A stretch of DNA of 64,000 nucleotides. Source: Planctomycetota bacterium (GTDB lineage: Bacteria > Planctomycetota > UBA1135 > UBA2386). Below, piece after piece: positions 12,410 to 18,286 of the stretch. The stretch lies in the NCBI GenBank assembly GCA_965223545.1, contig OZ245006.1, forward strand, positions 6,112,001-6,176,000. The letters run 5' to 3'. Position numbers and translations under genes: made by a program. The notes beneath the pieces were generated by a model. That model was given only the letters and a program-made list of their open reading frames with translations. It did no database searches and was not told the origin of the DNA. Position 1 is the first letter of the stretch, and the number at the start of each line of letters is the position of its first letter.

Positions 12410-14859
12410 ATGATGGGCCGCATGGTGTTGAGTGCGTTGCCGCCGTCTGGCCGCGGCCGAGCCGGATCACTGGGGCAGGCGCTGCTGCTCGCCTCGATCG
12501 TTGGTTCCGCACCGGGACAAGAGAGTGCGCAGCAGCCCGCGACCGTGTCGTTGGTGGGGACCGTTGTCGACGAAGGCGGTGAACCCGTCGCTGGCGCCCA
12601 GGTGCGGCACGGACTTCGCCGAGAGTTTCGCACCGGCGTGGCGTTGCCGGCGGTGGTGGCGACCACCGACGCGAAGGGGCATTTTGTGGCGACCGTGCCG
12701 GCGGGGCCCGACGATCAGATGTCGCGCGTGCTGATTGCGGCCGAGGGCCGCGCCTCGTGGAGCCTGGAGCTGCTCCCGTCTCTGACGATGAGGCGGCAAG
12801 GGCATTCGCTGGATCTTCCCTCTGTGGTGTTGCCCCCCGGCTTCCGCCTCGCGGGGCGCGTACGCAATTCCGATGGGGAACCGGTCGCGGGCGCGCGGGT
12901 GATTGCGCGCGACCTGCTCGCCGGGCATGGCCTCCAGGGCTGTTGGTCTGTGGCGCGCACCGAGGGCGATGGGACGTTCGTGCTTGAGGGGGCGTGCGCC
13001 GATCGCATGGAGATCACCGTCGACGCCGCGGGCTTCTATCGTTGGGCGCGGCGGCCGATGGGAATCGGCGATCCGCTGGATCTGACGCTGTCCCGTGGTG
13101 GTGTCGTTCGCGGAACGCTGCGCGGTCGTGACGGCGAGCCGGTCGCAGGCCGAGTGGTGGTCCGTTACGAGGTCACCGGCTCCCTCCGCATGCCGCAGGA
13201 GATCGAAGTCCCTGCGAGCGGTGAGTTCGCGTTCAACGTCCAATACCCGTGCCGCTTTCGCGCCGTCGGGCTGCCGGAAGCCGGCGGTGAAGTCGCTGGA
13301 CCGATCTTGGACGGGCCCGTCCCGGAGCTGGGTTGCGGCTCGGCGCGGATGACGACTCGAGGCTCGCAGTGCAGGTCGTTGACGGCGACACCGGCGGGCT
13401 TCTGTCCTCGGCGCGGGCCATCGCCGGTTGGGGCCGGTGGGTCAGCGGTGAAACGCTCGACTGGATGTTCGACTCGCACGCGGTCCGCGGCGAGGCAGGG
13501 GTGGTGTTCGTCACCGGGCCCTCGGGTGGTGAGGGCGCGACGGGCGCGATTCTCGCCGGCGCGGATGGCTACGCGAGCAAGCTGGTAGAGGGAGTTGCTT
13601 GGCCGCAGGGCGATGCGCCGATCCGCATCGAGCTTGCGCGGGGCTCGGTGCTGCGCGGCGCCGTGCGGGACGTGGGCGGAGGAGGTGTCGCCGGTGTGCT
13701 GGTGACTCTGGCCTTGGGTGATTCGATGACCGGTTTGCCACGCGGCTGGCAACTGACCGGGTCGGTCGGCGAGTTCCAGTTTGATGGGTTGGCAGAGGGG
13801 GCGTACAAGCTGTACGCCGGCGCACCGTTCGCTGGTGTGGGCGGGATGCGCACGGTGGCACTGGGCGCGGGCGAGGAGCGCACCGAGGATATCGAGCTTC
13901 CGACCTTGGGAGAACTCGCCTGCACGATCCGAGGCCTGGGTGGCCTTCGGGGGGCTTCGGTGCTGGCTCAGCTCGACCTCCGGCAGCCGGTTGGACCGGC
14001 GTCGATGATGATGGCGAGCTTGGCCCGCTGGCTGAGTGAGTTCCCAGTCGGCGTCGACGGTCAGTTCGTAATGCCATTGCACCAGGAAGGTCGCTACCGG
14101 ATGAATCTGATGTTCGGTGCGGCGCCGCGCACGGGTGCTCCGCCGAGCATCCTGCTGGGAACCGTCACCACCGACGCGGAGCGATCCCCGGTGGTCTTCG
14201 ACGGTGCCCGCCTGGGTCGCGTGCACGGACGCGTCACGATCGAGGGGGCTGCGGTGCCGAGCGCCCGTTTGGTCGCACAGGCTCGTGCCGCGATCCAAGA
14301 GAGACCCGGCGATGGCACTCGCCCGGAAGGCGAGCTGCGATGGGCTGCGATCGAACCCGATGGTTCTTTCGAGCTCGAACTCGCACCCGGGCGGTTCCTG
14401 CTCGATCTGGTCGATGTCGGCACCGGTGTCATCCTGGGGTCGAGCCGGGTGATCAAGGTCCACTCCGGGCAACGCACCGAGGTCGAGCTCGAAGCCGCAG
14501 TGACGGAGCTGCACGTGAATCTCGTCCCGCCCGAAGGCGGTCGCCTCATCGCCGATCGGTTGGATGTCCAAACCGAGCGGCAGAAAGCGATCCTCGAGGC
14601 CCTGCGTTATCGCTCCCCCTTCGGCACCGCCTACGGCAGCCCCGGAGTCGACCTCGCCGACGGCGCCCCCCGACATCGAATCTACGTCCCCCCCGGACCC
14701 GTCCGCCTCCGACTCCAACCCGGCTCCTCCTCCCTCGGCGCCGGAGCCTACACAACGACGCTGCCCACCAATCTCGGCAGCATCGACCTCATCGCCCTCC
14801 CCGACTCACGCCAAACGATCGAGATCCAAGCACAGCCGCCACCAAAACTCGACGGCTGA
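12410..14859 (+). pseudogene. Secreted carboxypeptidase-regulatory-like repeat protein, frameshifted near 13330
   Basis: Signal peptide and repeated GxVxDxxGxPVAGAxV motifs in the 12410 frame; the same repeat type continues in a different frame from about 13333 to the stop at 14859. Confidence 0.65.
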
Positions 14860-14867
14860 CCCATCGC

Positions 14868-15087
14868 GCTCCCTCGGCCTCTGGATCGAGAGCTGGCGGG
14901 GCCGCCCGCAGCTCCATCACCATCAGCGCCGGTCCAAGACGAGGCACAGGGTGCGACCGACGCCGATGGTGACGGAGCTGCGGGCGGCGGTCCCGGTTCG
15001 TGGTGCGTGGATGTGCGGCCTGGATTGAAGGTCGCTGAATCAAGAGAGCGGGTTTCGTCCCGGAGTGGTGCGCACTCGCCTCAGCTC
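14868..15087. repeat. 220-bp direct repeat, copy 1, containing a long REP-like hairpin (14901-14988)
   Basis: Matches 17256-17475 with 4 mismatches by manual alignment. Hairpin arms gccgcccgcagctcc..tcaccatc / gatggtga..ggagctgcgggcggc. Confidence 0.9.
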
Positions 15088-15147
15088 CGTCACCGTCGGC
15101 GGCGGTCGCACCCCGTGCCTCGTCTTGGACCGCTGTCGTCGGTGATG
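15075..15147. repeat. Inverted third copy of the REP-like hairpin, interrupted by the intron (remainder at 17182-17194)
   Basis: Close to the reverse complement of the core of the 14901-14988 hairpin. Joining 15147 to 17182 restores ctcgcctca...tgaggcgag pairing. Confidence 0.85.
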
Positions 15148-17181
15148 TTGCGCCTGGCATGGGCGCAGAGTTGAAGATGAAAGTTCTTTATGGATCCGTA
15201 CTGGAGGAAACCATGAGTCGAAGGCAGCTGCACGAGGCAGAAAGGGGAGCCGTGTGCCGTCCGAGAGGGCGGTGCGCGGTGTTGATCCGGGATGCCAGGA
15301 CAGGACGGACACCGTGCCGTGCTGTTCCCGCGAGGTCGTGTGGGATGGAAGCCCTAGACGCAGCGCAGCACCGAGCGAAAGCGAAGTTCCGTAAGGCTCT
15401 CGAGGTCTGGGTCAGCGTGCCATCCAACGTGACGCCCGATATCCAGTCGCGACCTCGGAGTACTGGAACCGGCGGCGGCGCGAAACTCTGCGTTCTTACC
15501 CAGGGAGATCTCTGTGTGTCCGCTTCGAGCGGTAGGTGGGGAGGAGGCAACGACGACCCACCAAGGCATGCAGAGAAGTCGGATCACCCCGTAGTAGTGA
15601 TGAAGCCGGGTAATGCCGGTGGAGCGAAGGGGGTGACAGGATGAGAAAGCCGAAACCACGGCAACTGCAGTTCGCTTTCGCCGAGAGCCCGCAAGGGGAC
15701 GGCGTGGCCGGAAGGGCAGACGAATCTGCCACGAAGTCCACGTCGGTGCCTACGACGGATTGCAGCCATCGATCGGAATCGGCTCCACCGCCAGCGGACG
15801 GCTACTGCCATCTGCTGGAGCTGGTCGCGGAGCAGGGCAACCTGCGAAGCGCACTGGCACATGTCGTAAGCAAGAAGGGCGCCCCGGGCGTCGACGGACA
15901 GACGGTGTCAGAGGTTAAGCGTCATGCGAAACACCTGCTCCCGAAACTCCGCGATGCTCTGCTCATGGAGACCTACGCGCCCGGCGATATTCGTCGGGTG
16001 TGGATCCCGAAGCCCAGTGGTGGGCAGCGGGGTCTCGGGATTCCAACCGTGATCGACCGCTGGGTCCAACAGGCCGTGCGCCAGATTCTGGAGCCGATCT
16101 ACGACCCGACGTTCCACGACAGCAGCCACGGCTTCCGGCCGAGGCGGGGAGCCCACACAGCGATCGCCGAAGCAGCGGGTTACGTGAAGCAGGGTCGGCG
16201 GTACACGGTGGACATCGATTTGGAGAAGTTCTTCGACCGTGTCCATCACCAACGCCTCCTGGACCGGCTGGCTCAGAAGGTGAAGGACCGTCGGGTGCTG
16301 CGGATCATCCGCCTGATGCTGAAAGCGAACGTAGTTCTTCCAGATGGCACCCGCGTCGTCACGGAAGAAGGAACGCCCCAGGGCGGCCCGCTATCACCTC
16401 TGCTGTCCAACATCGTCCTGGACGAATTGGACTGGGAGTTGGAACGACGCGGGTTGCGTTTTGTGCGCTACGCCGACGACTGCAATATCTACGTCGGTAG
16501 CGAGCGCTCAGGACACCGGGTCATGGCTTCGATTCGCAGGTTCATCGAACGTCGCGTGCGACTGAAAGTGAACGAAGCGAAGAGTTCCGTCGACCTGGCC
16601 CATCGCCGGCACTTCCTCGGGTTTCGCGTAGGCGCAACTCGAAAGGGCTGGCTGACGGTGCAGTTGTCCCGTCGCACTCTGGATCGCATCGACGCCCGAA
16701 TCCGTGAGCTTACGCCGCGGTCCTGGGGTGGTCGGATGTCCTGGTGCATCGAACGACTGAACCGTTACCTCCGTGGTTGGATCGGCTACTTCCAGCTGAT
16801 CACGAAGGCCGCGTGGCGGACCTTGCGGAATCTCGATGGCCATATTCGACGACGCCTGCGGGCGATCATCATTCGGCAGAAGAAGAGACCGCGATACCTC
16901 TTCCGAGACCTTGTCGCCCGTGGGTGCAGCTGGCAGTCGGCTGCACGCACCGCGTTTGGCCGGCGTGGCACGTGGTGGCAGAGCAACTCGGGAGCGATCA
17001 AACGCGCTTATCCCAATCAGTGGTTTGCTGAGCGGCTGGTGTCGCTCTCCAAGCTCTGGGACGAGCGCCGCTACGACTGGCGGCCCCCTTTGGGGGATAC
17101 CGTCCTGAAGAGCCGGATGTGTGACCCACAAGTCCGGTTCTGTGAGAGCTGCGGGGGGGCAACCCCCCGCGGCTACTCGGC
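15148..17181 (+). mobile_element. Group II intron, IIC-like
   Basis: 5' TTGCGCCTGGCATGGGCGCAG resembles IIC 5' ends; short domain V GAGCCGGATGTG-TGACC-CACAAGTCCGGTTC (17110-17140); domain VI hairpin with bulged A at 17175; encodes an RT/maturase. Confidence 0.88.
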
Positions 17182-17188
17182 GTGGTGA
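15641..17188 (+). CDS. ltrA: Group II intron reverse transcriptase/maturase, no endonuclease domain
   Basis: GAPGVDG, IPKPSGGQRGLGIP, HGFRP, DIDLEKFFD, GTPQGGPLSPLLSNI, RYADD, FLGF, thumb-domain LRGWIGYF. Confidence 0.95.
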   Translation: MRKPKPRQLQFAFAESPQGDGVAGRADESATKSTSVPTTDCSHRSESAPPPADGYCHLLELVAEQGNLRSALAHVVSKKGAPGVDGQTVSEVKRHAKHLLPKLRDALLMETYAPGDIRRVWIPKPSGGQRGLGIPTVIDRWVQQAVRQILEPIYDPTFHDSSHGFRPRRGAHTAIAEAAGYVKQGRRYTVDIDLEKFFDRVHHQRLLDRLAQKVKDRRVLRIIRLMLKANVVLPDGTRVVTEEGTPQGGPLSPLLSNIVLDELDWELERRGLRFVRYADDCNIYVGSERSGHRVMASIRRFIERRVRLKVNEAKSSVDLAHRRHFLGFRVGATRKGWLTVQLSRRTLDRIDARIRELTPRSWGGRMSWCIERLNRYLRGWIGYFQLITKAAWRTLRNLDGHIRRRLRAIIIRQKKRPRYLFRDLVARGCSWQSAARTAFGRRGTWWQSNSGAIKRAYPNQWFAERLVSLSKLWDERRYDWRPPLGDTVLKSRMCDPQVRFCESCGGATPRGYSAW

Positions 17189-17255
17189 GGCGAGCCTTCA
17201 GCTCTGGAGCTGGAGGTTGGTGGGAGCCGTTGAGCCCGGGGGATGCGTAGGGCGT

Positions 17256-17475
17256 GCTCCCTCGGCCTCTGGATCGAGAGCTAGCGGGGCCGCCCGCAGC
17301 TCCATCACCATCAGCGCCGGTCCAAGACGAGGCACAGGGTGCGACCGACGCCGATGGTGACGGAGCTGCGGGCGGCGGTCCCGGTTCGTGGTGCGTGGAT
17401 GTGCGGCCTGGAGTGAAGATCGCTGAATCAAGAGAGCGGGTTTCGTCACGGAGTGGTGCGCACTCGCCTCAGCTC
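17256..17475. repeat. 220-bp direct repeat, copy 2, with REP-like hairpin (17289-17376)
   Basis: Near-identical to 14868-15087; ends about 110 bp upstream of the RAYT-like gene. Confidence 0.9.
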
Positions 17476-17587: not shown

Positions 17588-18286
17588 ATGACGAGCAAGG
17601 CAGTTCGATCCCGGCGCGGTGGACGGCGCCGTGGGGTGGTGCAGGGTGAGCTGCCGTTTCGGCAGTGGGGTGGGGCTCGGGAGGGGGCTGGGCGGCCAAA
17701 GGTGAGTGATGAGACGGTGCCGCACTTGGCGCGGGGGGCGTTGGTGGCGCGGTATCCGTTGCACTTGACGGTGCGGTTGTGTCGGGGGTTGCCGGGCTTA
17801 CGGAATGCGCGGACGTACTGGATGTTGGTGGAGCGGATCCGGGCGGGGTGTGGGCGGTTCGGGTTTCGGTTGGTGGAGTTCTCGGTGCAGCGCGATCACT
17901 TGCACCTTCTGGTCGAGGCGAAGGACCGGGAGGCGTTGACGCGGGGGATGACCGGGCTGTTGGTGCGGATGGCGCGGGGGTTGAACAAGCTGTGGGGGCG
18001 CTCGGGGCGGGTGTTTGCCGAGCGGTTTCACGAGCGGGTGCTGCGCTCGCCGACGGAGGTGCGGCGGGCGTTGGTGTATGTGCTGCAGAATGCTTGGCAC
18101 CACCGGCAGCGGCCGCGGCAGCTGATCGACGTCTACTCGTCGGGGCCCTGGTTCGACGGGTGGCGCGAGGGGGTGGAGCTGTCGGAGCCGGTGGCGCGGC
18201 CGACGGTGCGGGCGCGGACTTGGCTGCTGAAGGGCGGGTGGCGGCGGTCGCGGGGGCGGTTGGACTTCCGCGAGCGGCCGGCGTAG
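17588..18286 (+). CDS. REP-associated tyrosine transposase (RAYT / Y1_Tnp HUH family)
   Basis: HLTVR, FSVQRDHLHLLVE (HUH), VFAERFHERVL, catalytic Tyr in ALVYVLQN, YSSG; adjacent palindromic repeats. Confidence 0.85.
   Translation: MTSKAVRSRRGGRRRGVVQGELPFRQWGGAREGAGRPKVSDETVPHLARGALVARYPLHLTVRLCRGLPGLRNARTYWMLVERIRAGCGRFGFRLVEFSVQRDHLHLLVEAKDREALTRGMTGLLVRMARGLNKLWGRSGRVFAERFHERVLRSPTEVRRALVYVLQNAWHHRQRPRQLIDVYSSGPWFDGWREGVELSEPVARPTVRARTWLLKGGWRRSRGRLDFRERPA

Follow-up and report, generated by a model that had tools for sequence, protein, structure and literature searches.

A group II intron from a sister clade of class C, inserted repeatedly in the hairpins of a Y1 transposase-like element in a planctomycete genome

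We describe a group II intron that interrupts a DNA hairpin upstream of a Y1 HUH transposase-like gene in a Planctomycetota bacterium. The stretch analysed, hereafter called the window, comprises 64,000 nucleotides (C1:6112001-6176000) of an 8.1 Mb genome with 70% GC (G000), which carries 14 full copies of the intron with 99.4-100% identity. Thirteen of these copies lie in a single family of hairpin units (7 in type B, 4 in type A and 2 in type C), occupying 13 of the 26 intact units, and all 13 are inserted in the 3' arm and on the same unit strand, namely the one whose mismatches read as G-T and whose fold is the more stable of the two. An earlier interpretation, made from the letters of the window only and referred to below as the sequence-only reading, had placed the intron inside a hairpin arm at 15148-17181. 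These coordinates are exact: similarity among the 14 copies breaks off precisely at 15148 (TTGCG) and 17181 (GC), and when the flanks are rejoined by script without the intron, they align with six intron-free units from other parts of the genome at 95-99% over 133-135 nt. The residence of the intron in this hairpin family is real and well supported at the sequence level. The window contains the following features:

14865..15006, minus strand: type A hairpin unit, empty, with its core at 14901-14988
15031..15045, plus strand: spacer motif between units A and B, resembling a motif just before the Y1 start codon
15075..15147, plus strand: 5' part of the type B unit, with the 5' arm, the loop and the first 20 nt of the 3' arm, ending in intron-binding site 1 (IBS1, 15144-15147)
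15148..17181, plus strand: group II intron of 2034 nt with the ends TTGCG...GC, belonging to an AGC-triad sister clade of class C
15421..15424, plus strand: exon-binding site 1 (EBS1, CAUC), with covariation between 15421-15423 and exon positions -1 to -3 in a set of 21 clade members
15463, plus strand: candidate EBS3 (C), Watson-Crick with exon +1 in 16 of 21 clade members
15641..17188, plus strand: intron-encoded reverse transcriptase (RT)/maturase with RVT_1 and GIIM domains and a YADD motif
17110..17140, plus strand: domain 5 (D5), 31 nt, with the AGC catalytic triad at 17111-17113
17144..17181, plus strand: domain 6 (D6), with a bulged A at 17175 (position -7) and including the 3' end
17182..17231, plus strand: 3' part of the type B unit, with IBS3 (17182), the remaining 3' arm to 17194 and a conserved small tail hairpin
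17254..17394, minus strand: second type A unit, empty, with its core at 17289-17376
17588..18286, plus strand: Y1 HUH transposase-like gene, 232 aa, with HLH and Y-x-x-x-N motifs

The interrupted hairpin is an imperfect one of 33 bp (type B), in which the 5' arm at 15075-15107 pairs with 15128-15147 and 17182-17194 around a 20-nt loop. It lies between two type A units (order A-B-A), to which it is related and inverted as had been suggested, but it is not their exact inverted copy: B and A show 81% complementarity across 80 nt. Types A, B and C have most of the 5' arm and part of the 3' arm in common, while their 3' arms differ. A profile search of the genome, from which the introns had been removed in a script, counted 26 intact units (13 B, 10 A and 3 C) plus two to three diverged lone units, giving 29 loci in all. 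Across the 14 insertion sites the exon ends in GATG (nine) or GGTG (five), followed by G (12) or A (two), and the distance to the loop is 20 nt in eight copies, 17 nt in four and 14 nt in one. None of the 14 sites follows an intrinsic terminator, on which ground terminator targeting was rejected for this genome; the proposal that the intron inserts within a stem and not after a terminator agrees with the 13 copies found in 3' arms. Some arrays contain several introns: the one at C1:6350460-6357067 has three in 6.6 kb, of which two stand head to head with 238 nt between them, and the one at C1:2255374-2259814 has two facing copies. The three type C units are borne by copies of an ISL3-like element (C1:5060060-5063630, 2607059-2608501 and 3672918-3676390), between its end and the transposase start; two of these copies contain the intron, creating an intron-in-hairpin-in-insertion-sequence nesting.

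The restriction to one family and one strand was quantified with a geometric scan whose thresholds were chosen from the real sites: at least 10 contiguous pairs, a loop of 3-25 nt and G(A/G)TG followed by G or A at 13-21 nt from the loop. The scan passes 1,216 sites in the genome, 58 of them in units on the used strand, none on the opposite unit strand and 1,158 elsewhere. The lack of any passing site on the opposite strand means that hairpin geometry accounts for the strand rule. Thirteen of the 14 insertions fall among the 58 of 1,216 sites (4.8%; P ~1e-16), as do five of the six junction types (P=1.4e-6). The genome holds a second, dispersed palindromic repeat (85 motif matches, often inverted doublets like REPINs), which was rejected as a target because it contains no intron; no copy of it lies within 3 kb of two other Y1 genes (1729907 and 3914571).

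The intron itself is 2033 nt long in 12 of the 14 copies, and its RT/maturase measures 488 aa in 12 copies. The window copy has an extra base near 17084, which lengthens the frame to 515 aa, takes it across D5-D6 into the exon and removes the normal stop. This variant is common to the window copy and the copy at C1:1357582 only, and its presence at two loci implies that the frame-extended intron moved or was moved in trans. The Rfam domain-1 intron model matches 15324-15494, the RT/maturase scores 373 bits against TIGR04416 (cut-off 300), its best match among solved structures is the GsI-IIC RT (403 bits), and a domain search of the intron open reading frame (ORF) at 15641-17188 found no endonuclease domain. 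A second, distant RT (37% identity) is encoded at C1:4530834-4531541.

The sequence-only reading had assigned the intron to class IIC, an assignment that we do not uphold given its AGC triad and its place in a sister clade. Among 163 related loci, D5 is of the CGC type (class C) in 126 and of a 31-nt AGC type in 20, with 17 left without assignment. The AGC loci form one clade together with rhizobial and sphingomonad plasmid introns (support 97 and 98), and this clade is sister to class C (96 and 99) with a joint node at 99-100, in quick IQ-TREE and FastTree trees built without bootstrap from every AGC row, 22-35 CGC rows drawn at random with some chosen ones added, and 8-15 outgroups. The g6 introns (D.p.I1, Pe.th.I1, Al.or.I2), a variety near class C as are U1 and U2, were described from clostridia and gammaproteobacteria and have IIC-like RNA, often located after terminators. 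The RT phylogeny that the sequence-only reading had called for, set against the terminator and attC introns, places two integron attC introns (L301 and L302) inside class C, apart from the AGC clade. Membership of the g1 variety of class G was rejected, as Sr.me.I2 and Rh.js.I1 are 28% and 34% identical and both fall among the outgroups. The D5 of the window intron has a 4-bp distal stem within its 31 nt, and that of the AGC-type outgroups measures 33-34 nt. Close relatives with usable flanks are rare, with matches at E<=1e-120 in two of 338 other genomes of the taxonomic class, and the closest RT protein (L163, 73% identity) comes without flanks.

Covariation was assessed across the 21 clade members with both ends, one of which (L013), like two outgroup rows, stems from an unpublished genome (G065); no conclusion rests on L013. 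Exon positions -1, -2 and -3 pair with 15421-15423 in 21, 21 and 20 of the 21 members, and exon +1 pairs with 15463 in 16. For EBS2, no covariation above 0.69 was found between exon -4 to -14 and the first 520 nt of the 21 introns. A TGGAA stands at the place matching the AGGAA of the IIC 11-nt bulge, the bulge having been compared by sequence only, and AGGAA itself is present in five of 21 aligned relatives. The first and the penultimate base of a group II intron are in contact. Nineteen clade members have the ends G...A(C/T), pairing a first G with a penultimate A, and the window intron and L168, which belongs to another subclade, have T...GC, in which T at 15148 stands with the penultimate G (17180 in the window). 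The T/penultimate-G ends appear to be a compensatory change that arose in two subclades. With class C the window intron shares an RT-maturase lacking an endonuclease, a shortened D5, and a 3-4 bp EBS1-IBS1 pairing plus EBS3 without EBS2; it departs from class C in clade membership, in insertion after terminators and in the CGC triad, with which class IIC is defined (PMC1702495). Taken together, the window intron would work like a IIC intron without being a member of class C. As PMC4424553 mentions further, unpublished intron classes, the AGC clade may have a name elsewhere.

The insertion sites of the clade differ from those of class C. After exclusion of four of the 21 members with too little flank, and with kinship among rows ignored in the counts, at least five T in the last 10 exon nt were found at none of 17 clade sites versus 56 of 68 class C sites, and still at 21 of 30 class C sites when GC-rich flanks only were considered. 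Upstream folding is equal (median -13.8 kcal/mol for the clade and -13.9 for class C), and the 3' exon pairs back into the stem at 11 of 17 clade sites versus 15 of 68. In one genome (G061), a relative with 55% identity is present in 11 copies, which are spread over several small palindromes of different kinds; two of these target repeats number 12 and 23 copies, and one has a GTAG foot like a classical repetitive extragenic palindromic (REP) sequence. In a genome of the host's family (G015), five ends of a close relative lie in a mosaic repeat of about 300 nt with 55 matches. PF01797 (Y1) had no match in G061 or G015, and the window Y1 protein as query had none in G015. The idea that homologous introns would be flanked by the same hairpin is thus borne out for copies within the genome and not for these sister introns in unrelated repeats. 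Three alphaproteobacterial plasmid sites and two further loci (L003 and L006), with weak or moderate upstream folds, do not fit the hairpin pattern. One member (L004) lies 4 nt after a perfect 12-bp palindrome, apparently on the reverse strand of a gene. On balance, we lean towards regarding the AGC-triad clade as a distinct class that avoids terminators and uses palindromic repeats, and its link, as far as the flanks indicate, would be to hairpin repeats in general and not to products of REP-associated tyrosine transposases (RAYTs).

The hairpin family is tied to the Y1 gene. This gene has 12 full copies, with 92-98% nucleotide identity, and one truncated copy, cut off after 140 nt (C1:5624984-5625123), at 13 loci; variation among the copies is mostly silent (74 versus 28 codons). 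The protein matches PF01797 with 25.8 bits (threshold 23), its HLH and Y motifs are conserved in relatives, and the tyrosine motif is Y-x-x-x-N-(A/G/H), YVLQNA in the window, and neither Y---NP nor Y----Q. Against the RAYT model NF047646 it scores 35.3 bits, with a cut-off of 80, and this score together with the 12 full gene copies speaks against the RAYT label that the sequence-only reading had used. Likeness among the copies stops at the stop codon, and upstream lie variable arrays of alternating A and B units, as in the B-A-B-A-B array near 1.635 Mb, which has a period of about 353 nt. Units lie only upstream of the gene in this genome, 23 of the 26 intact ones within 1.1 kb of a Y1 copy, and the dispersal away from the transposase gene expected of REPs and bacterial interspersed mosaic elements (BIMEs) is therefore not seen here. 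On the genome-wide map it is the unused 85-copy palindrome that is dispersed, not the targeted hairpin. The notion that the intron uses RAYT-propagated REP-like repeats accordingly stands as far as one hairpin family tied to a Y1 HUH gene is targeted, and falls in its RAYT-specific part. The spacer-type motif has 19 genomic matches, 10 before Y1 starts, nine in array spacers and none elsewhere; given that the Y1-start motif recurs between A and B units, an A-spacer-B pair looks like an internally deleted element.

The Y1 family was found in 20 of 60 sampled relatives, with up to 47 matches (47 in G048 and 22 in G040). In G017, which belongs to another genus, an upstream unit is present at 21 of the 23 listed Y1 genes, out of 33 matches, and outward-facing units flank Y1 genes on both sides at two stretches (L304 and L305), where tandem unit-Y1-unit modules occur and some genes are truncated. 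Hairpins of the window family accompany Y1 genes in G000, G017 and G011; among 19 Y1 loci sampled from relatives, only two carried such a unit, and lone units exist in relatives. Further genomes of the family and order also contain the unit, with its stem conserved, and an alignment of 12 units from nine genomes revealed compensatory change at 14 of 30 stem pairs and no invariant GTAG/GTGG tetramer at the hairpin foot. In a search at the gathering threshold, Rfam matched only the intron domain and no RNA family for the hairpin. Variation in both arms falls mostly at every third base in the nine-genome alignment, and the arms read as Asp/Gly-rich codons on opposite strands, a pattern that could reflect a coding origin or protein binding. 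We suggest, from the arrangement of units and genes, that 'Y1-element end hairpin in BIME-like arrays' would be a better description than 'RAYT-propagated REP', and that the layout is probably closer to TIRtrons or class 3 IS/REPtron intermediates than to REPtrons.

Starting from the observed boundaries, copy number, site and strand pattern, EBS1/EBS3 covariation, phylogenetic place and lack of T-tracts, and borrowing hairpin docking, lower-stem melting, a single-stranded target and host priming from IIC biology, we propose that a recently expanded, endonuclease-free retroelement sister to class C targets the hairpins of the Y1 element by shape plus a short guide, a mechanism that we hold to be likely. 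In this mechanism (i) the RNA-protein particle would dock on the apical 10-12 bp or so of the folded single-stranded DNA; (ii) the lower stem would open, allowing EBS1 (CAUC) to pair with G(A/G)TG, while EBS3 (C) would pair with the base that follows; and (iii) the intron RNA would reverse-splice into the 3' arm of the hairpin. The units come close to ideal targets: on one strand, their 3' arm has G(A/G)TG at steps of 3 nt (14, 17 and 20 nt below the loop), and the other unit strand provides no site with the required geometry. Distances of 17-20 nt leave a stem of 9-12 bp above an assumed 8-nt spacer and IBS1, as in the E. rectale IIC structure, where a short spacer, IBS1 and IBS3 come after a 9-bp stem that is extended to 12 bp (PMC10190682). 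As the units are intergenic, insertions survive; the Y1 element would multiply harmless landing pads, and its protein would not be needed for insertion.

Several observations weigh against this mechanism. The copy at 2458668, outside the family, has the same tetramer and no stem, and at the 14-nt site the remaining stem amounts to no more than about 6 bp. Free energy by itself was rejected as a site predictor because it does not discriminate in a 70% GC genome: of 98,619 tetramer sites about 33,000, as estimated from a sample of 12,000, fold no less well than the real ones. None of the 1,158 geometry-passing sites outside the family is used; these count genic and intergenic DNA together, most of them probably lie in genes, and survival bias thus contributes to the apparent preference. 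The 85-copy palindrome has 17 passing sites and no insertion (13 of 58 versus 0 of 17, P=0.03), pointing to some further preference beyond shape and four bases, with 10 of the 17 having an A at +1 that mismatches EBS3. A bias of the IIC type with respect to replication is weak: relative to an origin placed by GC skew at about 4.017 Mb, 10 of 14 copies are co-directional (P=0.09), and unit occupancy by orientation is 9 of 13 versus 4 of 13 (P=0.12). Finally, G061 and G015 are metagenome-assembled or incomplete, and a Y1 gene could be missed in them.

The multiplicity of copies could in principle reflect one or two insertions, later multiplied as the Y1 element moved or as units underwent gene conversion. 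Eight copies do share the 20-nt register, and the two type C copies have one haplotype and identical flanks over at least 1.1 kb, so that these two may come from one insertion event. However, the five junction types within the hairpin family and the one outside require at least six insertions. Sixteen variable columns split the intron copies into haplotypes, one of which is present at the A-14, B-17 and B-20 junctions and another at A-20, B-20 and the outside site; the same intron haplotype at three junction types, twice over, shows repeated insertion and cannot result from the copying of occupied units, and four haplotypes are present among the five copies at the commonest junction. We therefore regard amplification as largely refuted and very improbable. 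In a public sequencing run that is possibly the source sample, intron depth was about 13 times that of single-copy flanks (383-394 versus 25-32). A contig of this run joins 15147 to 17182; contigs of the run break at repeats, and since this intron-free joint can derive from other empty units, the empty-site allele looked for in reads is not established for this locus.

Recognition of sequence in place of shape is a further candidate: the intron protein would read a stretch of 20-30 nt common to the units, the hairpin being incidental. The parts of the arms shared by A, B and C, the geometrically fit sites left unused in the 85-copy palindrome and the stemless outside site would all suit such homing, which we nevertheless rate as improbable, given that the insertion point slides in 3-nt steps, that the 3' arms of the three types differ, that EBS2 does not covary, and that relatives reside at unrelated sequences, mostly hairpins. 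It is slightly less probable still that the Y1 protein licenses the site by binding or nicking the hairpin, keeping it single-stranded and perhaps supplying a 3'-OH primer for the endonuclease-free intron. The extreme preference for one hairpin family over another repeat family, the weak replication-strand bias and the tie between hairpins and Y1 genes in three genomes are consistent with licensing. Against it, sister introns are multi-copy in repeats of G061 and G015, where PF01797 found no match; two of the three ISL3-borne units are occupied at more than 450 kb from any Y1 copy, even if action in trans is possible; and strand exclusivity already follows from hairpin geometry. Dependence of insertion on Y1 is thus unlikely, and there is an equally small chance that the intron is a true hyperparasite, for which the Y1 enzyme opens or nicks its own end hairpins and so provides both the single-stranded site and the primer. 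If true, a Y1-assisted step would explain the half-filled units, the untouched other repeat family and the weak replication-strand bias.

In comparison with known systems, shape-plus-guide targeting as proposed above most resembles that of class C (IIC; B.h.I1, GsI-IIC, the E. rectale intron), whose RT-X protein likewise lacks an endonuclease and whose short D5, 3-4 bp EBS1, EBS3, missing EBS2 and stem-loop 5' of the site are described in PMC1702495. In contrast to the window clade, class C forms a separate clade with a CGC triad, has a T-tract before most sites, pairs its 3' exon into the stem less often, and shows a strong strand bias (lagging-strand template) where that of the window intron is weak. 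The same paper states that IIC introns insert after terminators 'or other inverted repeats', and PMC4424553 gives three target habits for bacterial group II introns: homing sites, terminators and attC. IIC-attC introns (S.ma.I2 type) also insert on one strand of an imperfect palindrome belonging to another mobile system (PMC4424553), but they fall inside class C, whereas the window target is a Y1-element hairpin with the guide G(A/G)TG. Other elements' palindromic repeats also serve as safe sites for ISPpu9, ISPpu10, ISPsy8, ISPa11, ISRm19 and ISRm22, which, according to PMC1525189, occupy a fixed REP position in near 100% of copies; unlike the intron, they rely on DNA transposases. A table in that paper lists only two of nine group II introns of P. 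putida KT2440 near REPs. A literature search, mostly of open-access papers, found no group II intron clade with REP-like or Y1-element hairpins as its main target and no description of an AGC-triad sister of class C.

REPtrons, TIRtrons and class 3 TnpA-Y1 systems share with the window element an HUH-Y1 gene flanked by hairpins in alternating orientation, and the outward-facing units on both gene sides in G017 resemble TIRtrons (PMC3733652) or class 3 IS/REPtron intermediates (PMC6006769). REPtrons, which in PMC6006769 have one gene per REP type and a GTAG/GTGG foot, differ from the window element with its 12 close gene copies, up to 47 matches in a relative and no invariant foot in the units, and the known Y1 signatures Y---NP and Y----Q differ from Y-x-x-x-N-(A/G/H). 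Elsewhere in the window, two ORFs that overlap (12410-13588 and 13333-14859) encode carboxypeptidase-regulatory-like domains and could represent a single gene interrupted by a frameshift.

In summary, our analysis adds a further target habit to the three listed above: a clade next to class C, spanning several phyla, appears to have its main habitat in palindromic repeats that belong to other mobile elements. The combination of an AGC triad, as in IIA and IIB introns, with IIC-type exon recognition in one clade bears on the origin of class IIC, and on the question whether the terminator habit is younger than hairpin recognition. The genome constitutes a natural experiment, in which 14 recent insertions, 26 units, three registers, one strand and an unused control repeat yield testable rules of shape recognition. 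It also brings to light a multicopy Y1 hairpin element for which neither the IS200 nor the REPtron definition is a good fit.

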